From a virus, in the IMG/VR virus record IMGVR_UViG_3300045973_000675, positions 15,145-79,144 of that record: 64,000 nucleotides of DNA; one strand, given 5' to 3'. Below are positions 241-58,671 of the stretch, one piece after another. The first letter of the stretch is position 1; every line of letters begins with the position of its first letter. Both the position numbers and the translations under genes were made by a program. Under the pieces are notes generated by a model. That model did no database searches, was not told the origin of the DNA, and was given only the letters and a program-made list of their open reading frames with translations.

Positions 241-807
241 CTACTTGGAATCTGCCTTGGCCTGTTGGCGGGCCGAGCGGGCAGCCCTGCGAGACGATGC
301 CGGGGTGGCATCTGTCGCGTCACCAGCGGTATCTTCGGTTTCCTTCTCAGCCTTCTCGGCCGCAGCGGCCTCCGCGGCTTCCTTCTCTTCCTGGCTGATG
401 ATCTCTTCTCCGTCGACATGCTCCTGCGAGGGATTGAGATACTTTCGACCACGTAAGGGTTCCTCCAGCGAGGGAGCTGCTACCGTCCCAGCCGGCGTGG
501 TCGCTCGGTCGACCAGGGACAACGATCCAGGGGTGGGACGCGCAGCCAATGCTTCGCGCTCCGCCCGTGCCCGTTCCGCAGCTTCGATGCCCTTCGCTCC
601 GGCTAGGTCTGTGACCTCGAACAGCGCCTGGGTATCGTCGTCGCTCCGCAGAGATCGTAGGTACTCCGCCAGTTCGAACGTATCGTTCCCGACCTTGATT
701 GCCTCGGGAATTTTCGCCCACACCCCGACGTTGAAATGGATCCCGTGAACCGAATAGGTCACGGGACCATTGCGGAAATTGCGCAGCCTTATGAATAGCT
801 CGTTCAT
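241..807 (-). CDS. Hypothetical head-region protein with acidic/Ala-rich C-terminus
   Basis: Start moved to MNELFIRLRN (807) because the ORF-track extension overlaps the upstream gene. Confidence 0.65.
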   Translation of the reverse strand: MNELFIRLRNFRNGPVTYSVHGIHFNVGVWAKIPEAIKVGNDTFELAEYLRSLRSDDDTQALFEVTDLAGAKGIEAAERARAEREALAARPTPGSLSLVDRATTPAGTVAAPSLEEPLRGRKYLNPSQEHVDGEEIISQEEKEAAEAAAAEKAEKETEDTAGDATDATPASSRRAARSARQQAKADSK

Positions 808-847
808 GTCTTCTAACCCCCGTTGAAAACCCGTGAAGAAACGTCGA

Positions 848-1256: not shown

Positions 1257-2204
1257 CTACGCGGACTTGACCTTCACGGCCTTCGCTACCGCGGGCTCGT
1301 GGAGGTACTTGACCGCGACGCGCGCCCGGCAGACCACCATCAGGACACCAGCCTGGATGTCTTCCTGGGTCTTGAACGTGACGTCCTTCCAGACGCCGAC
1401 GCAGATGTTCTTGGGATCGCAGAAGATGATGTTCGATTCGTTCGTTCCACCACCGAGGTTGGTCGGGAACATCGGAACCGGGATGACCTGCACCCCGTAG
1501 GCCGGGATGGGGGCTGCCGACGTCAGGGCGCTATCGCCGAGGCCGGTGAAGCGCGGGGCAACGAGGTCGCGCCACTTGGTCTCGATGGTGGGCGCCGTGT
1601 AGAAGCGCATCTTCGACTTGTCCTTCTGGAACTGGCTGGGCAACAGGTTCGCCAGGTGGAGGAAGTGCGCTTGCGCGAGGACGATCGAACCGTCGTCGAC
1701 CACGTAGGTGCTCGACTGCTTGAGGATGCCGTCGAGCAGCTTGAGCAGAGGATCCGTCGACGTGGTGTCGCCGTTGATGGCGAGGTCTTCCATGTCGAGG
1801 CCGAAGCGCTCGCCCATGAGCTTCTTGACGTGCGTCGCGAGGGCATCGCCTTCGATGTTGTCCTCGATGTCGACGTCGGTCAGGTTGACCTGGCACTTCA
1901 TCTGGACCGTGGTCAACGTGACCTTGCCCGTGGTGGGGGCCGCACGATCGGTGTAGCTGAGGGACTGACCCTCGACACCGCCGCGGGTGATGCGCGACAG
2001 GAAGCCAAGCTTGTCGACCTCCTGGACGGGCGCCGACAGTGGCTTGAAGAAGACGTCCTTCAACAGACGCTGGTCCTGGATCGAAATCTCCAAGAACTCT
2101 TTGGACTGGGCCGGAAGGAGCACGCCGCCATTGGTGGTCATGTCCGAGACCTTCATGTCCGCCTTCTGGATGTTGGTACGGGCGATTTGTCGGTTCGATT
2201 CCAT
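1257..2204 (-). CDS. Major capsid protein (HK97 fold)
   Basis: 315 aa, GGVLLPAQSKEF, DIEDNIEG, DMEDLAINGD, DGILKQ; follows protease/scaffold; AAGGAG RBS. Confidence 0.9.
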   Translation of the reverse strand: MESNRQIARTNIQKADMKVSDMTTNGGVLLPAQSKEFLEISIQDQRLLKDVFFKPLSAPVQEVDKLGFLSRITRGGVEGQSLSYTDRAAPTTGKVTLTTVQMKCQVNLTDVDIEDNIEGDALATHVKKLMGERFGLDMEDLAINGDTTSTDPLLKLLDGILKQSSTYVVDDGSIVLAQAHFLHLANLLPSQFQKDKSKMRFYTAPTIETKWRDLVAPRFTGLGDSALTSAAPIPAYGVQVIPVPMFPTNLGGGTNESNIIFCDPKNICVGVWKDVTFKTQEDIQAGVLMVVCRARVAVKYLHEPAVAKAVKVKSA

Positions 2205-2972: not shown

Positions 2973-3661
2973 TCGAGTGGGTTGACGACGGCGGTCCCGC
3001 CAATCGAGAATCCGGTGATTTCGCCCTTCTTGATGGCGGACCACATGTCATCGTCCAGCACCCTCTCGGCCATCATCCAAGACCCGGCCTTGAGGAATTG
3101 CCCCTCGTAGGTCTCGTCTGACTTTTGGATGTAGCACTCCAGCACGGCGAACTTGTCGTTGGAATCGAGCACCTTGCCGTCCTTGGTACGCGCGTGCTGG
3201 ACGGTGAAGTGCCCCGCCTCCCCATCGGTTCGGTACGCCTCCATCCAAGCCTGCTGTGCCTTGCGAATGGTCGCCGACGTCTCGGTGTGGCCCTGGGTGT
3301 CGACCTCGTCTGGTTCCATGACGACGCCCAGGACGTAGCGCTCTTCCTCGGCAGTCTCGGCCTTGGAAACGATCACGCGGGCGAACTTGAGCGTCGGAGA
3401 TGGCTCGACGGGCGTGACGGTCGGCGGCGGTTCAGATGGCGCGGTGGCCTTCTGGATTGCCACCACAATCGCCTTCGCAAGCGTTGGGTACATTCCTCCA
3501 TCGCCCATCGATGCCATCGCCTTGCGGGTCTCACCGCGCACGCGCAGCTTGACCACGACGTCCTGGTAGTCGTCGGTAGCGGTAGTGGCAGCGGCGATCA
3601 CAGGGGAGGTCACGGATGCCGTCTTCGCGATAGGCTCTCTGAATCGCCGGCTGCGCTTCAT
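2969..3661 (-). CDS. XkdF-like prohead serine protease
   Basis: EERYVLGVVMEPDEVDTQGH, VQH, GSWMM, WSAIKKGEITGFSIGG are typical of the XkdF/S78-like family. Confidence 0.85.
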   Translation of the reverse strand: MKRSRRFREPIAKTASVTSPVIAAATTATDDYQDVVVKLRVRGETRKAMASMGDGGMYPTLAKAIVVAIQKATAPSEPPPTVTPVEPSPTLKFARVIVSKAETAEEERYVLGVVMEPDEVDTQGHTETSATIRKAQQAWMEAYRTDGEAGHFTVQHARTKDGKVLDSNDKFAVLECYIQKSDETYEGQFLKAGSWMMAERVLDDDMWSAIKKGEITGFSIGGTAVVNPLD

Positions 3662-3664
3662 GGC

Positions 3665-4348
3665 CTACCGACGGTTCATATCGTTCGGCCACGCGAACGG
3701 GGCGGGCGCGACGGGGGCAGGATCTGCAGCCTTCGCGATGGAGTCGATCTTGGTGATCTTCTCGTCGGGCATGGCCGCTGCCTTCTTGGCTTCCTCGGCC
3801 GCCTTGTCCTTCTCGGCCGCAACTGCTTCGTCCTTGGCCTTCATCTTCTTGTCACCGCACGCCTTGGCTAGCTTCGCCAGCGTGGCGCACCGGAACACGC
3901 GAACCTTGGCGCCCTCGACATCGGTCTCGCCGGTGGCGGACCAGGTGGCCAGGGCAACCTTCACGGTCGCGACCATGGGACCGGCATCCATGCCCTTGGC
4001 GACCGCGGCCTTTTCGAGGGTCGTCGCGCACATCTCGACCATCTCGTCGGCGCCCATATCCTCGCCAGCGTCATCGGTGGCCAGGGTGGCGACGTCCTCG
4101 GCGGGGACCATCGGGAACCCGTAGTAGACGCTGTCGAGCACCTTTCCGCACTCGTAGAGTTCGTCCCACATGTCGATCGAAATGTTGGGATCGATCTCGC
4201 CGGCGGTGGCGATCTGGTCCCGCAAAGCGGACAAGCGGGTCACTACCAGCGTGAGGGCCGTAACCACTCCACCAGCAAAGTCGCTCTGCTTGAGGACTCG
4301 GGTGCAGGCGTCGTTGAGCTTCTTGATGATTTCGGTCTTGGTGGCCAT
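3665..4348 (-). CDS. Putative second scaffold / internal head protein
   Basis: 227 aa, ends PFAWPNDMNRR, the same motif as 2240..2926. Confidence 0.65.
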   Translation of the reverse strand: MATKTEIIKKLNDACTRVLKQSDFAGGVVTALTLVVTRLSALRDQIATAGEIDPNISIDMWDELYECGKVLDSVYYGFPMVPAEDVATLATDDAGEDMGADEMVEMCATTLEKAAVAKGMDAGPMVATVKVALATWSATGETDVEGAKVRVFRCATLAKLAKACGDKKMKAKDEAVAAEKDKAAEEAKKAAAMPDEKITKIDSIAKAADPAPVAPAPFAWPNDMNRR

Positions 4349-5805: not shown

Positions 5806-7686
5806 CTACGTCTCCGTGATGAAAGGGGCCAGCTCGGAAGCGGGCACGCGGATGACCTGCTCGTCGTCATCGCTCGATTGCTTGTGGACTGCGAATTCCT
5901 TGGCCGCACTATCCTGCTCGGCAGCCAGCACGCTCTTTCGAATGGCGACGAGGTGCTTGGCCATGGCCACGATGTTGCCCTCCTGACGTGCCTTCTCAGC
6001 TCCGGCAAGGTTATCGGAGATGCCAAGCCCACCGCCGCCGGCGGCGCCCGCCAGCGTGAGGGCGAACGGTTCATCCCCGCCATCGACAGGCTTGTAGTCG
6101 CGGCCGAACACGTCCTCGGCCACGGCGCGAATCTCGTTTCGGCTGAGGGCGTTCTCGAACTGCTTCGCCGCCAGGGCCAGTGCTTCGGGATTCTTGAGGT
6201 CCGCTCCCAGCGACTCGAATTTGTAGTAGCGGATCCCGAGGTCGGTCAGGATGGTGCGATCCATCAAATAGTCGAAGGCGTTGCGCTCGCCCGAGAAGAC
6301 CTGCTGTTCGGCGAATGCCAGGGCAGCGTCGGCTGTAGCCCTATTTACATCGCTGGAATCGCCGCGAAGAATCTTGGGAAGCCGAAACGACTCGCCGATC
6401 TTGTTTCGGTTCCGCTCGTCGTACTCCATGAACAGGCCATCCTTCAGGATGGCGTCGGTCAGGGGTTGGATCTTGATCCGCACCTTCCCGTCGGCGGTCG
6501 TGCCGGTGGAGTTCTCGGCCGGCATCGCCTCGAGGATGATGGCCTTGTGGAAGTTGCGCGCTCCCCTGATCTTGTTCTCGATGAAATCCTTGAACGCCTT
6601 TACCGATTGGCTCGATAGCCTGCCGCCTTCAATCAGCACTGCCATCGGCGGGATCGACTTGTTGTCGAAGAACAGATAGTTGATGTACTCGGCCTTTCGA
6701 CTTCCCTGGACGGACAGGTAGTTGCCAATCCAGCGCGGCAACCCGTAGGGGCCGGTCGGATTGTAGAGGGCATCGCACCACAGCTCGGTCGCCTCCATGG
6801 TGGTGGGCTCGGCTGCCATCATGGCATCGACGCAGGCTTGGCGATCTTTTCCCGCCTCGTAAAGCGTCCCTGTCTTTACGCTCATCACGCGCGTGTCGCC
6901 GAACTCCTTGAAGTACGCCGGGATGCCCTCGCAGAGTTGGATGTAGCGGCGAAAGCGGCGCCACTTCAAGATCGTTCTGGTCGTGATCGGTGAGATGCGA
7001 ACTGGCACCGAAACCTTGATCCATGGCCCACGCTTGAGCATGCGAATCGTGTACGACGGGACGTGCCTTAGCTCGGCGATCTTCCTCAGTCCGTTGCGGA
7101 TGACCTCCCAGTAGCCGCTGCCGTTCGTCTCCTTGTCGTGCCGCGATCTCCGCCGCAGCTCCACAAACGAATATTGGTCGGTGCAGTAGTCGAAGAACGA
7201 GGTGATGCGCGCCAGCTCCTTGCGCATCTCGGACGCGACGATAGCTTTGCGCTGGGCCACTTCAGCCGACGTGGGCTCGGGCGGGTCGGGCTGGGTATCG
7301 GCGCCGGACGCTTCTTCCATGGCATCCAATCGTTCCAGATAGATGACGTCGGCGATTTTCTTGTCCGCGTCCTCTTTGGTCAGGTCGATGATGGGGACGA
7401 AGCGATGACCGAAACCGTCGCAGTTGGTGACGTATGAGTGCACGCACTGGGGGAGGATGTTGGACTCCTCGACCATGCGGCCGAGCAGCTCGGGTGGATA
7501 GGGGGGCACGAGCGCCCCTGCGTCGCCGAACATCCCGGCGATACGCTTGTCCTCTTCCTCGCGGACATTGCTCGGCGGCGCATCGTCGTAGCTGATGACG
7601 TGCATCTTGGTGATGGCGGTGCGGTCGTTGTCCGCCACCTCTTCGTCGTCGTCGACCTTGGCGATCGCTTTCCCTTCGTCAGCCAT
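5806..7686 (-). CDS. Portal protein (PBSX-like)
   Basis: 626 aa, PPYPPELL, NGSGYWEVIRN, YGLPRWIG, FFDNKSIP, FRLPKILRG, NRATA, SRNEIR. Confidence 0.9.
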   Translation of the reverse strand: MADEGKAIAKVDDDEEVADNDRTAITKMHVISYDDAPPSNVREEEDKRIAGMFGDAGALVPPYPPELLGRMVEESNILPQCVHSYVTNCDGFGHRFVPIIDLTKEDADKKIADVIYLERLDAMEEASGADTQPDPPEPTSAEVAQRKAIVASEMRKELARITSFFDYCTDQYSFVELRRRSRHDKETNGSGYWEVIRNGLRKIAELRHVPSYTIRMLKRGPWIKVSVPVRISPITTRTILKWRRFRRYIQLCEGIPAYFKEFGDTRVMSVKTGTLYEAGKDRQACVDAMMAAEPTTMEATELWCDALYNPTGPYGLPRWIGNYLSVQGSRKAEYINYLFFDNKSIPPMAVLIEGGRLSSQSVKAFKDFIENKIRGARNFHKAIILEAMPAENSTGTTADGKVRIKIQPLTDAILKDGLFMEYDERNRNKIGESFRLPKILRGDSSDVNRATADAALAFAEQQVFSGERNAFDYLMDRTILTDLGIRYYKFESLGADLKNPEALALAAKQFENALSRNEIRAVAEDVFGRDYKPVDGGDEPFALTLAGAAGGGGLGISDNLAGAEKARQEGNIVAMAKHLVAIRKSVLAAEQDSAAKEFAVHKQSSDDDEQVIRVPASELAPFITET

Positions 7687-30124: not shown

Positions 30125-30170
30125 AGCACCCGCGACCGCCACAACATTGCGGGACGGTTCGGTTAGCTCA

Positions 30171-30213
30171 GCGCGCCCGACATGACTCGAACATGTAACC
30201 CCCGGCTTCGTAG
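30171..30213 (-). other. attP core: 3' half of tRNA-Arg(ACG)
   Basis: CTACGAA GCCGG GGGTT ACATG TTCGAGT CATGT CGGGCGC G = anticodon loop, 3' stem, variable loop, T-arm, acceptor 3' strand; 5' half absent; about 235 bp downstream of the integrase. Confidence 0.85.
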
Positions 30214-30377
30214 TTCCGAACACCAGGCAGTCGTGGATCTCTCGCGCGCCCGAGGGGCCACTTGCTCCAACCGATTCGACTCCCAGCGGATCAGGTTGTG
30301 GACAAGATGCTACTGGGGGAGGAACACTCGAAGAAGCGAGTGGCCTCTCTGGCACGCGAAAATCTAAAGCAGCAACC

Positions 30378-38171: not shown

Positions 38172-38410
38172 ACGGCCCTCCGTAGTGCCACGGGTCGAGC
38201 CTTCGCCGATTGTTCTGCCATTACCGCCTCGTCGAGCGCATCAGATGCCCGCGCCTGTTCTTCCAGCGCGTGAGCCAGCCGCTGCTCGGCCTTGTGCACA
38301 TCGACGCCGCACCGGTCGAGACGAAACTGCGCGCTCTGACGGTCGTGCTGGAGGCGCGATAGTTCAGCGGCCGAGACCGGCCCGGTGGGCTTTCCGATGT
38401 CAGGGCTCAC
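38168..38410 (-). CDS. Coiled-coil hypothetical protein
   Basis: Coupled at both ends. Confidence 0.5.
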   Translation of the reverse strand: MSPDIGKPTGPVSAAELSRLQHDRQSAQFRLDRCGVDVHKAEQRLAHALEEQARASDALDEAVMAEQSAKARPVALRRAV

Positions 38411-40005
38411 GCTGCACCGTCCGGCATGATGCCCTTGACCCGCTTCTTGCCCCGCGCCTCGGCCGCCGCTTCCTTGATGGGGACGATGATCGGCTCGGTG
38501 ACTTCCTTCTCGGGGTCACACCACGGCCGGATGGCGATGAGCGACCACCCGCCCTCGATGACCTTTTCGTAGAAGCGGGCTCGCGTCTGGTCGTCCATGC
38601 TGCCCACTTCGTCCACCTTGATGAGCTTGCCCAATGGATTGGCCCGCTTCGCCAGGTCGACCGCGAAGTCGATCTTCTCGTGGCCACCGCAACGGTCGAA
38701 GCTGACCCCATCGAGGAAGATGTTTCCGTCGACGATGGCCAGGCCTGGAATGGCCTTGGAACGCTCAACCATCTCGGCGGGTGCATCGGTGGTCAAGCGG
38801 TCAACGATGGCCTGCAGGGCCTTGGCCTTGGTGGTGGCGTCGGCCTCGACTTGACCGAGGCGGATCTCCTCGTAGAGGGCGTCGTGGGCCTCACGTGCCG
38901 CGCGGATGAGCTCGACCTTGGACATGGCCGCTGTCACGGCGTCGCCGGCGGCCGCCATCTCCGCTTCGGTTGGGGGCACGATGGTGGCGGAGGCCAGGGT
39001 GGCTTCGAGGTCGTCGGCCTGCGTATGGCAGGACTCGGCCTGGTCGAGCAACCTCTTCGCCTCGACATCGGCGATCTCTAGTTTGTCGAGTTCATTCCGT
39101 TTCGTTTCCACGCGCAGGCGGGCCCGCTCAAAGTCCTCCTGTGCCTCTTCCAATTCAGCGTGGACGCATGCGATGGTTTGGGCGTCGCGAACAGCATCTG
39201 GTCGGGCCAGAATGTCGTCTCGTTCGGCGCGCAACTCGGCGATCCTGGACCGCGTCCCCTGGGTCCGCACGGCCATGGCCTCGGCGTCGGCCTTACGCTG
39301 GACGAGCGCATCCCTTGCCTTCTCGGCCTCGCGCAGGGGCAGATCCTCCTCGCCCTCGAGCGGGACCTCGACGCCCTTGTGCTCGGGACGGTCCAACGAC
39401 TTGGCCTTGGTAACGGCCGCGGCGTGGTCGGTCTTGGCCTTGGCCGCGACCTTGTTGGCCTCGGTGCGCCTGGTCTCAAAGCCGGCCCGCACGTCGTCGA
39501 TGACCTCCAGGCCGAACTTGCCCGCGGGCACCTCGCAGACCTCGCCAGTCCAGCGCTCGAGGTCTTCCGCGGTGACCGGCATTTCGATCACCTCGGACAG
39601 CATCTCGATGCGCCGGGACTTGGTCGCCTTCAGGAACTCGACCGGGTCGAACAGCTTCCCGAACTTCTCCAGCATCTTCTCGCGTGGGCTTTGCCATGGG
39701 CGGGTGTCGCCTTCGTTGTTGCGGATTGTGAGCTTGGGAGAGCCTTCGCGCGGAATCACCTGGCGGGCCGTGAAGCTGGGATTCGGCGGGTCGTCGAAGT
39801 GGGCCATCAGCTCGGCACGGTCAGCGCCCTTGCGGATGGCGTCCTTGCTGATGCCAAGCCCGGTGAGGGTCATCTCGATGGCGTCGCCGATGGTGGACTT
39901 GCCGGTTCCACACGGGCCCTTGATCTCGTTGCCGTCGGGGCCGATCTCAATCACGCGATATGAGATGCAGCCGAGGTCGCGGATGCTGATTGCGGTGAGT
40001 TTCAT
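38407..40005 (-). CDS. SMC/Rad50-like ABC ATPase
   Basis: GPCGTGKST, long coiled coil, CGGHE signature-like motif, IKVDE. Confidence 0.8.
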   Translation of the reverse strand: MKLTAISIRDLGCISYRVIEIGPDGNEIKGPCGTGKSTIGDAIEMTLTGLGISKDAIRKGADRAELMAHFDDPPNPSFTARQVIPREGSPKLTIRNNEGDTRPWQSPREKMLEKFGKLFDPVEFLKATKSRRIEMLSEVIEMPVTAEDLERWTGEVCEVPAGKFGLEVIDDVRAGFETRRTEANKVAAKAKTDHAAAVTKAKSLDRPEHKGVEVPLEGEEDLPLREAEKARDALVQRKADAEAMAVRTQGTRSRIAELRAERDDILARPDAVRDAQTIACVHAELEEAQEDFERARLRVETKRNELDKLEIADVEAKRLLDQAESCHTQADDLEATLASATIVPPTEAEMAAAGDAVTAAMSKVELIRAAREAHDALYEEIRLGQVEADATTKAKALQAIVDRLTTDAPAEMVERSKAIPGLAIVDGNIFLDGVSFDRCGGHEKIDFAVDLAKRANPLGKLIKVDEVGSMDDQTRARFYEKVIEGGWSLIAIRPWCDPEKEVTEPIIVPIKEAAAEARGKKRVKGIMPDGAA

Positions 40006-40169
40006 CGTGTGTTTCCCTTCTCATTGAGGAATTGCTGGGCGGCCTTCTCGGCTGCATTCAATTTATTCGACCACCGTTCGTTCCTATCGAGTGCCTTCAA
40101 TACGGCTCGCAGGTGGTCGACTGCGGTGGTGGGCGCTGGCGTCTGTTCCTGTTGCTTCTTCGACTTCAT
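40002..40169 (-). CDS. Small hypothetical protein
   Basis: MKSKKQQ...; ATG one nt after the CCA of the tRNA-like element; stop overlaps the next start. Confidence 0.5.
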   Translation of the reverse strand: MKSKKQQEQTPAPTTAVDHLRAVLKALDRNERWSNKLNAAEKAAQQFLNEKGNTR

Positions 40170-40170
40170 T

Positions 40171-40239
40171 TGGTGGAGAGTCCGGTTTCGAGCCCGGCCG
40201 TGCGCGATGATCAATCGCGACGTGACACCTTCACTCCCC
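40171..40239 (-). ncRNA. 69-nt tRNA-like element resembling the tmRNA TLD
   Basis: GGGGAGT/ACTCTCC acceptor with G3:U70, then ACCA; stemless D-loop; central hairpin; imperfect T-arm (CTCGAAA). Confidence 0.6.
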
Positions 40240-40297
40240 TTGCGCCCCGTTCGGCCGGGGCCACGCCTTCCACTCCTTTCCGCTGCTATTGGGTTGC

Positions 40298-40762
40298 CTA
40301 GAACGGAACGTCGTCGTCCACTGGCGGACGCGAGGCGTGTTCCTCGCGGTGCTGTGCGCCCGAATTCTTCTCCTCGCCCCAGCCGCGCTTGCCGCTCGAC
40401 TGCTGATTGCCGCCCTGCTTGGTATCGCCGTCGCCTCCGCCCAGGAACACCACGCGATCAGCGACGATCTCGGTGGTGTAGCGGTCCTTGCCTTCCTTGT
40501 CCTGCCACTTGCGGGTTTGCAGCTTGCCCTCGAGGTAGACCATCCGGCCCTTGGCCAGGAACTTGTGGCAGTTCTCCGCCTGGTCGCCCCACACGTTCAC
40601 GCGGTGCCACTCCACCCGCTCTTGCTTCTCGCCGGCCTTGTCCTTCCAGACCTCGTTGGTGGCGATGCTCAGATTGCACACCGGGCGGTTGCTCGTGGTG
40701 TACTTCAGCTCGGGGTCGGCCCCGAGGTTGCCGACCAAGATCACTTTGTTGACGCTGCCCAT
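40298..40762 (-). CDS. ssb: Single-stranded DNA-binding protein
   Basis: [16 protein letters not shown]...EWHRV...DDDVPF. Confidence 0.97.
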
Positions 40763-40765
40763 CGC

Positions 40766-41689
40766 CTACGCCGCGCCCTTCTGGTCCACGGCCTGGGCTG
40801 GCTGCGCCCGCTCGCTCGCCACGTCCTCAAGTAGCTTCTTGATGTTCGGCAAGGACAGGTCGCCAGACGAGCGGATCTCGAATCCCTTCGGGGGATTGAG
40901 CTTTTCGTTGATCCAGGTGATAGCATCGGCCTTCTCTTTGCCGATCTCCTTCATGGCCGTGAAGAGTTCCTGGAGCTTGACTGCCTTCTCGTCCTTGTCC
41001 TCGCCATCGTTGAGCCAGTCGCGAAATGTGCTCCCGATGTTGTCGACGTGCTCCTTGTCGAATGTCTTTCCGTCGAGCACGTAGCACCGTGTCTTGTCGA
41101 CCTGCACCTCGTGATCCTGGTCGACGTTCAGGACCAAATCGAACTCGTAGTCGACGTCCTGACGTTGCACCGGGGCGGTCCCGATCTTCTTGGGCACCGT
41201 CACCTCTTTCCCGTCCCGATTCTTCTCTTTCTCCAGAACCCACTCGGTCTTCGTGCGCATGGTGCAGATGATGTGGAGTTTTGCCGACAGCAGAGCCTCG
41301 ATGAATTTGTTCTGCTGCGGGGTCAGATCCTTCCACACGTCGAATCTCTTCCCCTTCTTGTCGGCCTGTTCGAGGATGCCACCAGCGCCAGCCCATGCGT
41401 GGGACATGGAATCTAAGATCAAGCAATCGTATCCTCCCGCCTCCGCCTCGCGAATCGACTTGATGTAATCCTCTGGGCTGTGCGAACTAGGAGAGTCCGC
41501 GTCGAACACGAACATATCGCTGTATAGCGACGCGCTCTCGTGTTCCGAATCCCGCAGGGCAATCCTTCCCGTTGGACCGACCAACTGCACCGCGATCTTC
41601 AGTGCGTCTATCGTCTTTCCGCTGCCAGTCGGGCCAATGATTGCAATGCGCGCTCTCTTCTTCTTCTTCGTTGCTCTCGTGAATGCCAT
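40766..41689 (-). CDS. AAA_24 / Sak4-like ATPase (recombination)
   Basis: GPTGSGKT, DSEHESA, LILDSMSHAW, DYEFD, KTR. Confidence 0.85.
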   Translation of the reverse strand: MAFTRATKKKKRARIAIIGPTGSGKTIDALKIAVQLVGPTGRIALRDSEHESASLYSDMFVFDADSPSSHSPEDYIKSIREAEAGGYDCLILDSMSHAWAGAGGILEQADKKGKRFDVWKDLTPQQNKFIEALLSAKLHIICTMRTKTEWVLEKEKNRDGKEVTVPKKIGTAPVQRQDVDYEFDLVLNVDQDHEVQVDKTRCYVLDGKTFDKEHVDNIGSTFRDWLNDGEDKDEKAVKLQELFTAMKEIGKEKADAITWINEKLNPPKGFEIRSSGDLSLPNIKKLLEDVASERAQPAQAVDQKGAA

Positions 41690-57420: not shown

Positions 57421-58671
57421 CTAGATCGCCACCGTGGTGCTGGCCTCGCCACTCATCACGCCATCGTCGGGCGCGCTCGATTCGTCCGCTGCAGATCCGT
57501 TGTCCATCGCCGTCACCACGCAGTAGATCTTCTTTCCTCCGGTGGCGGCGATGTTGGGAGCGGTCGTTCCAGACGCCGCGACTTGGGTTCCGTTTCGATA
57601 GGTAACACCTTGCTGGTATGACCAGTAGACGTGATACGAGACGGATCCCGCGACCGCGGACCACGCGACCGAGAAGTGACCTGACGTGGTCGTGACCGTG
57701 ACGTTCTTCGGAGCCGGCAACCGCGGGCACCGCACGGTTTGCAAGATCATGTTGGCCGGCTTCATGTACTGGGCCACGGTCATGACCCGCAGCAACTGCT
57801 CGGGAGTTGCCGCCCAGCCGCTCGACGCGAAGGGGATACCGATCTTCAGACTGAGCTGGCAGCTAGATCCATCGCTGCCGATGATCCACGTGGTGCCAGT
57901 TGGTCCAAGCGCAGAGATCGGCTGAGTGCCTTCGGGCGGAGGCGTAGTCCCCTTGAATGGGCCCAAGTGCATGTTTTGAGTGCCACCAAAGGCGATGATG
58001 TCGACATCTAGCCCGGTGAAAAAATTGATGGCCGACCGAATCCCGACGGTTGTACCCTTGAGCTGGTATATCGTGATCAAGGACAGCAGCAAGCGGCGCT
58101 TGTCCACCAGCGATAGGTCAGCGAAGCGAAACGGGTTCCCCATATCGACCAGCATCAGGTCGACGAAGCGCTCGAACGCGCGCTCGGGATCAATGATGTC
58201 GGTCCAGCGGTCGACCGTGGCCAGCAGAATGGTCAGCATGTCCTGAAGGCACCCGACGAAGCGGGCCAAGTCACCCGAGTCGTCCTCGGCCCAGTTCTTC
58301 CGCGGTAGCATTTTGGCCACCTCGAAGGCGCGCCCGGCCGGGGCCGCTGGTACGAAGGCCGAGAAATTGGCGAACACGGGAGCCACAAGTCCCGTGATGT
58401 TCGCAGCTGTCACGCGGTAGGGCCGCCCGGGCGACATGTCCGTATCGGTCGTGAGGTCGACCGTGGTTGTGGAAACGGTCGCCACGCTGACCACGGTAAC
58501 CGCTGCGGTTGGGATAAGTCCGCCAGGCGCTGCCGTGGCCGCGATCGTCCAATTCGCCGGGTTCAGGGCGTCGCCAGCGGCCGTCGCATCCGACTGCGTG
58601 ACCGCCCCGCTGAATACCACGCGGACGAGCCGAAGCTCGCGGGCCTGCGCGGACGTGACCGATACCGACAT
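57421..58671 (-). CDS. Phage tail protein I-like baseplate protein with Ig and FN3-like domains
   Basis: DLARFV, IDPERA, IYQLKGTTVGI, YMKPA; C-terminal WSAVAGSVSYHVYW. Confidence 0.8.
   Translation of the reverse strand: MSVSVTSAQARELRLVRVVFSGAVTQSDATAAGDALNPANWTIAATAAPGGLIPTAAVTVVSVATVSTTTVDLTTDTDMSPGRPYRVTAANITGLVAPVFANFSAFVPAAPAGRAFEVAKMLPRKNWAEDDSGDLARFVGCLQDMLTILLATVDRWTDIIDPERAFERFVDLMLVDMGNPFRFADLSLVDKRRLLLSLITIYQLKGTTVGIRSAINFFTGLDVDIIAFGGTQNMHLGPFKGTTPPPEGTQPISALGPTGTTWIIGSDGSSCQLSLKIGIPFASSGWAATPEQLLRVMTVAQYMKPANMILQTVRCPRLPAPKNVTVTTTSGHFSVAWSAVAGSVSYHVYWSYQQGVTYRNGTQVAASGTTAPNIAATGGKKIYCVVTAMDNGSAADESSAPDDGVMSGEASTTVAI

Follow-up and report, generated by a model that had tools for sequence, protein, structure and literature searches.

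A 69-nt tRNA-shaped element is encoded on the minus strand at positions 40171–40239 of the window, the 64,000-nt stretch of viral DNA analysed here. Covariance modelling and gene order show it to be homologous, in structure and in position, to cloverleaf tRNA-like genes of two related phages (loci L001 and L003), where these genes likewise lie between ssb and an SMC-like ATPase gene. The original prediction had described the element as mini tmRNA-like, i.e., as a tRNA-like domain (TLD) with no mRNA part. Our comparisons place it elsewhere: it appears to belong to a lineage-specific family, as a compact tRNA mimic of alanine type, and to stand close to the tag-less tmRNAs without being one of them. 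In our opinion, the explanation that has about an even chance of being correct is that the element belongs to a small phage tRNA-like lineage as a compacted form without decoding function, and that punctuation of its own operon in cis is its likeliest selected function.

The 69-nt element and its operon

The source record is a 79-kb uncultured virus from IMG/VR with approximately 63% G+C. The element is embedded in a run of early genes, all of which are on the minus strand. Upstream are genes for a DnaQ-like exonuclease (42715–41732), an AAA_24/Sak4-like ATPase (40766–41689; 72–79% identical to its counterparts in L001 and L003), and SSB (40298–40762; Pfam SSB, E 5e-40). Downstream are ORF55, a reading frame of 55 codons (40002–40169) whose stop overlaps the start of the SMC-like AAA_23 ATPase gene (38407–40005), and, next in the run on the same strand, an MT-A70 methyltransferase gene. 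The gap between ssb and ORF55 is 128 nt long and holds the element together with a GC-rich hairpin (40241–40263, minus strand) that ends 1 nt 5′ of it; the core of this hairpin (40244–40261) had been predicted. No sigma-70-like promoter or minus-strand terminator was found around the element. A Shine-Dalgarno (SD) sequence is absent before the ATG of ORF55 and present before most neighbouring genes. As had been pointed out, this ATG (at 40169) follows the encoded CCA of the element after a single A.

In read mapping, the element is covered by DNA contigs of one pond metagenome, where the depth of the phage is about 147, and coverage in the RNA run is limited to conserved ssb pieces of other organisms. 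The same pond yielded a second contig (1464 nt, depth 11) with flanks about 85% identical to those of the window, in which 544 other letters replace positions 40009–40293. The slot between ssb and the ATPase gene is thus a variable cassette.

The letters reported for 40239–40171 on the minus strand are exact, and most of the structure proposed for them stands. The 5′ acceptor strand GGGGAGU (40233–40239, with G3 at 40237) pairs at all seven positions with ACUCUCC (40175–40181), and this 3′ strand runs on into discriminator A (40174) and the encoded CCA (40173–40171). The alanine identity set (G3:U70, A73, and CCA) is therefore carried by an element that has the shape of the tRNA family. A G3:U70 pair within a 7-bp acceptor helix suffices for recognition by AlaRS. 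The minimum-energy RNAfold structure (−27.6 kcal/mol) is the one originally drawn, with a closed central hairpin and an imperfect T-arm; it comprises the acceptor, a central hairpin of 6+3 bp with the loop UGAUC, and a 4-bp T-like hairpin. The T-like arm (40182–40197) has the loop CUCGAAA and one bulged G, and can alternatively be drawn as CCGG/CCGG with an 8-nt loop; in its T-loop, U54 is replaced by C. The central hairpin, equivalent to an anticodon arm (CGCGA/UUGAUCA/UCGCG, 40203–40219), is recovered both by RNAfold and by covariance-model alignment. In the minimum-energy fold it gains an additional U:A closing pair and a 3-bp extension, and its loop holds GAU and a GATC site. An open form of the hairpin is available as well, in which a canonical 5-bp stem closes the 7-nt loop UUGAUCA with U33, the anticodon GAU (the alternative reading that had been suggested), and C37.

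Two further proposals hold in part. The D-loop had been called stemless, which is not simply the case: in the alignment to relatives GUGA (40234–40231) can pair with UCAC (40225–40222) around the loop AGGUG, forming a vestigial D-arm (40222–40234). As the acceptor/D junction is short of 4 nt, this stem overlaps the last two acceptor pairs and can form only at their expense; folds in which it forms in part or in full lie 0.6–6.6 kcal/mol above the minimum. Also, a degenerate copy of the 5′ strand had been noted upstream. The letters GGAGTGGAAGGCGT do exist at 40276–40263, but the resemblance is not significant (4 matches at two or fewer mismatches, with 1.5 expected).

The reading as a fragment of a phage attachment (att) site, which the original prediction had itself set aside, was rejected: both acceptor halves are present, and this phage has its tRNA-Arg-like site elsewhere. 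The latter stretch (30169–30249, minus strand), which is probably the attP core, was detected by ARAGORN at the 90% threshold with the anticodon TCG and scores 12.7 bits with the covariance model R1 described below.

Taken alone, the element is no better than chance. Its fold has a z-score of −1.53, with 11 of 200 shuffled sequences folding equally well, and a 7-bp stem followed by NCCA at the spacing of a tRNA is found 42 times in the window versus about 30 times in Markov shuffles. Its significance comes only from comparison with other sequences. Standard detectors are silent. ARAGORN in its default mode reports no tRNA or tmRNA genes in the 64-kb window, and Rfam searches, both at the gathering score and at E ≤ 10, return nothing on the element whether 64 kb, 451 nt, or 88 nt are searched. 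The Infernal check that had been proposed with the tmRNA (RF00023) and tRNA (RF00005) models came out negative: RF00023 has no match in the whole record, and RF00005 has none at E ≤ 10 either in the record or in the 88 nt. At a threshold of 80%, ARAGORN calls a 78-nt tRNA-Ile(GAT) that starts from 40248 and is in a different register; this call was dropped as evidence because the same threshold yields 95 calls per 64 kb. Among canonical tRNA features, the acceptor/D junction (4 nt gone), position 54 (C), and position 37 (C) fail in the element, and only U33 and a 7-nt loop are possible. An exact scan of IMG/VR with the 5′ motif gave 0 matches, and a T-arm pattern scan returned ordinary tRNAs only.

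Homologous tRNA-like genes in the ssb–ATPase slot

The SMC-like ATPase, for which relatives at 71–86% identity exist (P0002–P0004, P0006, and P0007), was used as the anchor for finding related slots. One metagenome scan gave three loci (L001–L003), two of which, L001 and L003, were useful. Both have the gene order of the window, Sak4–ssb–tRNA-like gene–ATPase, on one strand. L001 is a 49.9-kb contig whose ATPase is 77% identical to that of the window, while the SSB and Sak4 proteins of L003 are 88% and 79% identical, respectively, to those of the window. Searches of IMG/VR and of GTDB genomes with the ATPase, Sak4, and SSB produced only distant relatives (27–65% identity), which have no tRNA-like gene after ssb.

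The L001 element (79 nt, 3801–3879, plus strand) lies after Sak4, ssb, and a hexapeptide-repeat gene and before the ATPase gene. ARAGORN labels it “tRNA-?” and assigns it the four-base anticodon CACG, which lies in a loop of 8 nt. The T-arm is perfect, and the acceptor carries G3:U70, A73, and an encoded CCA. The L003 gene (77 nt, 2005–2082, plus strand) directly follows ssb, is called by ARAGORN, scores 48 bits against the Rfam tRNA model, and likewise has an 8-nt loop (GACG). Its acceptor carries G3:C70 and G73 and lacks CCA; therefore, alanine charging is not the conserved feature of this slot. The two anticodon loops share the form G..ACG.. and lack U33. No such 8-nt loop is found in the window element, whose loop is UUGAUCA (7 nt) or, when closed, UGAUC. 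Four-base decoding by the 8-nt-loop relatives was considered and is not supported, as approximately 13 kb of shared genes contained no frame breaks. In L003 and L001 a stable hairpin ends 2 nt before the tRNA-like gene (1 nt in the window); the gene that follows is 23–120 nt distant and is preceded by a normal SD. The counterpart of ORF55 in L003 is a 188-aa ORF, to the C-terminal 42 aa of which ORF55 is homologous (45% identity, E 7e-9).

L001 has an additional gene between ssb and the tRNA-like gene (3050–3712, plus strand). It encodes a 220-aa hexapeptide-repeat (left-handed beta-helix) protein and is built of near-perfect 18-nt tandem repeats.

The L001 and L003 genes align as cloverleaves. 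All four stems differ between them, and compensatory changes keep every stem paired. A covariance model built from these two sequences alone (R1) was run with filters off over both strands of the 64 kb, i.e., 128 kb of searched sequence. Its best match in the window is exactly 40239–40171 on the minus strand; the score of 16.2 bits (E 0.14) is weak, and the chance that the top match would fall in the 128-nt gap on the minus strand is about 1e-3. The alignment describes a shortened cloverleaf with the acceptor GGGGA(GU)/(AC)UCUCC, a 4-bp D stem (GUGA/UCAC), a 5-bp CGCGA/UCGCG stem, a 5-nt variable region, and a 4-bp T stem with a bulged G, followed by ACCA. The second-best R1 match (57585–57653) is antisense inside a 416-aa ORF and was dropped. 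A genome search with R1 under speed filters gave no candidates, a result that is uninformative.

Covariation in the ssb-downstream regions of related phages had been proposed as a check on the element, and it is observed. In the three-way alignment none of the 60 pair cells is unpaired, and both partners change in 11 of the 21 pairs, counts that refer to three sequences in an alignment fitted to the model, with two acceptor pairs and one T pair gapped in the window element. In a control in which the pairing partners were slid, about 45% of cells were paired. Among these phages, identity at four-fold degenerate sites in the genes on either side is only 35–71%, which is near saturation, and BLASTN finds no alignment between the three slots. 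The stems have thus been kept paired despite near-saturated neutral sites, which argues for selection on the fold. In view of these data, the 69-nt element is probably real. The original prediction was to fall if a decayed ordinary tRNA proved a better match. The comparison comes close to this outcome, since the relatives in the slot are cloverleaf tRNA-like genes, but these relatives are not ordinary tRNAs either.

Cis punctuation and decay as possible explanations

Decoding is an unlikely function for the window element because of the 4 nt missing at the acceptor/D junction, the altered T-loop, C37, and the lack of any anticodon shared with the relatives. What is conserved across the three slots is the fold, while the anticodon loop and the acceptor identity are not; this pattern is better accounted for by a role that depends on shape than by decoding or by a role specific to alanine. 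Since the conserved property is neither a codon nor an amino-acid identity, we take punctuation in cis to be the likeliest selected function. In the proposed mechanism, the element would be transcribed within the ssb operon and excised by host tRNA-maturation enzymes, with RNase P cutting at G1 (40239) and RNase E or exonucleases acting at the CCA. The cut would leave an ssb message that ends in the protective 3′ hairpin at 40241–40263, and the downstream message would start at, or 1 nt before, the AUG of the SD-less ORF55, which would make it nearly leaderless. The released 69-nt RNA is predicted to be chargeable, probably, with alanine, and it could have an activity in trans, either tmRNA-like without a tag or as a decoy for defence systems.

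Precedents exist for both ends of this scheme. In E. coli, RNase E cuts 1–3 nt past an encoded CCA (PMC2190699). In plant mitochondria, tRNA-like t-elements have been proposed to define mRNA ends by directing cuts of RNase P and RNase Z (PMC1920247). As is predicted for the window element, the t-elements are non-decoding tRNA-like folds located between co-transcribed genes; they differ in being organellar, whereas the window element keeps the full alanine identity set with an encoded CCA. The architecture of the window locus would fit a punctuating role. Several considerations temper the punctuation reading. A hairpin 1–2 nt from the cleavage site could hinder rather than help RNase P. The normal SD and the 23–120 nt spacing in L003 and L001 indicate that the leaderless detail is peculiar to the window. 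Moreover, punctuation could be a by-product and not the selected role, because processing would be expected of every RNA with a tRNA shape within an operon.

It is possible, though unlikely, that the element is instead a recently inactivated relic: a gene like those of L001 and L003 that, following deletions which took most of the neighbouring ORF as well, is in decay and no longer has a function. Several features of the locus agree with this. Among the four versions of the slot, that of the window has the smallest length; ORF55 corresponds to just the last 42 aa of a 188-aa ORF; about 8 nt have been lost from the element, with 4 nt gone from the acceptor/D junction, 1 nt from the T stem, and some of the D loop, in addition to the change to C54; standard detectors fail on it; and the co-occurring relative with about 85% identity has other letters in place of the whole stretch. 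Against decay, every stem is still perfectly paired in some register, and G3:U70, A73, and CCA are intact. As neutral sites among these phages are near saturation, inactivation, if it took place, must be of very recent date.

Relation to tag-less tmRNAs and other tRNA-shaped RNAs

The proposal that the element acts in trans as a tag-less tmRNA analogue, i.e., that it is alanylated and either works with SmpB and EF-Tu to enter or block stalled ribosomes or else titrates SmpB, which would make it similar in action to the RNA of mycobacteriophage DS6A, is in our estimate rather unlikely. RNAs of this kind are already published. PMC11915505, citing Mao et al. 2009, describes tmRNAs without a coding sequence and a DS6A form that inhibits the host tmRNA in E. 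coli, and tmRNAs without an mRNA part are found in jakobid mitochondria (PMC3590771). They are also common in phages: a pattern scan of IMG/VR collected 95 mini-tmRNA loci (L158–L252) of 65–90 nt with 62 distinct sequences, all of which have 7/7 acceptor pairs. It should be noted that TCGAC, GGTTCGA, and G3:U70 were fixed by the collecting pattern. Most of these loci stand alone, and 88 of the 95 escape detection by ARAGORN. In many of the RNAs, a conserved UAA/NAA directly follows the central helix on its 5′ strand. When one mini-tmRNA was used as a blastn query against cultured phages (INPHARED), nothing was returned.

The window element bears a weak general resemblance to these RNAs. Shared features include a length within 65–90 nt, a GGGG start, a 7-bp acceptor with G3:U70, A73, and encoded CCA, and a single central hairpin between a D-loop-like stretch and the T-arm; both are phage-borne and solitary. 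A covariance model of 63 phage tag-less mini-tmRNAs without acceptor pairs (R3) ranks the element first in the window, with 18.1 bits (E 0.005) compared with about 66 bits for members, but R3 rewards features of any alanine-type tRNA. With the same model L001 scores 26 bits and L003 nothing. RF00023 aligns only the two ends of the L001 element (19.7 bits, E 3e-6).

This likeness, weak but significant, is among the parts of the TLD-only interpretation that are supported; family membership is not. On the window element RF00023, whose gathering score is 47 bits, finds nothing even when the search is confined to 88 nt, whereas all 12 of 12 sampled mini-tmRNAs score 46.7–78 bits. Since true mini-tmRNAs score about or above the gathering score, a zero-scoring candidate should not be filed among them. 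All three TLD motifs are altered in the window: UCAC stands for UCGAC, GCAC for GGAC, and CUCGA for UUCGA. Where the conserved forms are GG..UCGAC in the D-loop, GGAC ahead of the T-arm, and UUCGAnU in the T-loop, the window reads GGUGUCAC, GCAC plus 2 extra nt, and CUCGAAA, respectively; in the alignment of the collected mini-tmRNAs GGAC is near-invariant. Junction lengths also differ, and the window element has a possible D stem. Its positional homologues are cloverleaves with D stems and anticodon arms, one of which, in L003, lacks G3:U70, A73, and CCA. No relatives of SSB, Sak4, or the ATPase are shared between the mini-tmRNA loci and this phage, and no SmpB gene is found in the phage record. 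The silence of RF00023, the altered motifs, the generic features rewarded by R3, the lack of shared neighbours, and the lack of an SmpB gene are the reasons for which the element is not filed as a mini-tmRNA.

A true TLD-only tmRNA was found on an unrelated phage contig, L035, by a three-sequence model (R2) applied to SSB-derived loci. This 85-nt RNA (759–843, plus strand) scores 62.9 bits with RF00023, 303 internal positions of which are replaced by 12 nt. Some additional matches are recorded here for future reference. Just upstream of a tRNA-Lys(UUU) and the mini-tmRNA of L035 is a stretch (495–559, plus strand) that scores 20.9 bits with R3 and has a good T-arm and a CUCCA end. In L011, an Omnitrophota MAG contig with a Sak4 relative, R2 matches a tRNA-like stretch of 101 nt (6366–6466, plus strand) at 21.6 bits; its anticodon/variable region takes up some 42 nt, and ARAGORN does not call it. 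Finally, Twister-P1 ribozyme-like matches are present in two phage contigs on the plus strand at L165:1401–1458 and L181:1077–1134 (54.2 and 40.2 bits, respectively, short of the gathering score of 67.2), and they lie, together with a RAGATH-24-like match, 1–2 kb upstream of mini-tmRNAs.

Reduced or non-canonical tRNA-shaped RNAs of unknown or non-standard function, which gene finders miss, include species 1 and 2 of phage T4, RNA1 and RNA2 of phage T5, and D-arm-reduced mitochondrial tRNAs. The T4 and T5 RNAs lie in tRNA clusters, in contrast to the window element, which is solitary within a recombination operon. The jakobid mitochondrial tmRNAs (PMC3590771; Jacob et al. 2004) are similar in being tRNA-Ala-like rescue RNAs that lack a tag message and have a G:U at position 3 and A73, and some are compact with unusual T-loops; they are, however, descendants of bacterial ssrA and mostly two-piece, while the window element apparently derives from a tRNA-like gene. 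A variant that joins these ideas would make the window element and L001 a separate lineage of alanine-acceptor tRNA mimics, intermediate between a cloverleaf tRNA and a TLD-only tmRNA, which would be derived from a tRNA-like gene and not from ssrA, excised from the early operon, charged by AlaRS, and active in trans on SmpB or stalled ribosomes, or on a tRNA-directed defence. We assign this variant a low probability.

The probability is lower again for the element as a decoy or sponge for host defences that target tRNA, such as anticodon or acceptor-tail nucleases, which would bind or cut it in place of host tRNAs. The pattern of conservation is compatible with such a role, in that the shape is kept while the anticodon loop varies freely (7 versus 8 nt, with different sequences), as is expected in an arms race. 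Phage tRNAs counter tRNA-cleaving defences (PMC10264068 and PMC11555353), and both the tails and the anticodon arms of tRNAs are targets of defence systems (PMC12851939 and PMC12445682). Speaking against a decoy are the single copy and a sequence that points to no particular nuclease.

Very improbable are the two remaining readings: that there is no RNA gene but only hairpins, SD-like runs, and short coupled ORFs (a 17-codon GTG ORF at 40265 and a TTG start at 40214, preceded by GGAG-rich runs, that would extend ORF55 to 70 aa), which is opposed by the lack of a well-spaced SD before the TTG and by two independent covariance models that rank the exact stretch first in the window, and that the element is a working tRNA-Ile(GAU), which the ARAGORN call at 80% favours but against which speak the noise level of that threshold and C37, the missing nucleotides 8–9, C54, and an alanine acceptor on an isoleucine anticodon.

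The compacted, operon-punctuating tRNA mimic that we prefer has implications beyond this locus. Phage genomes hold many small tRNA-shaped RNAs that are missed by both gene finders and Rfam, and the present case indicates that a recombination operon can accommodate a 69-nt form in which the alanine identity set is complete. If the element is cut out as predicted, it would be a bacterial-virus counterpart of the tRNA punctuation known from organelles; an additional activity in trans would extend the range of phage RNAs that interfere with the rescue of ribosomes. Should the reading of a separate alanine-acceptor lineage prove true, these RNAs would represent a second, independent route to tag-less RNAs that interfere with rescue.
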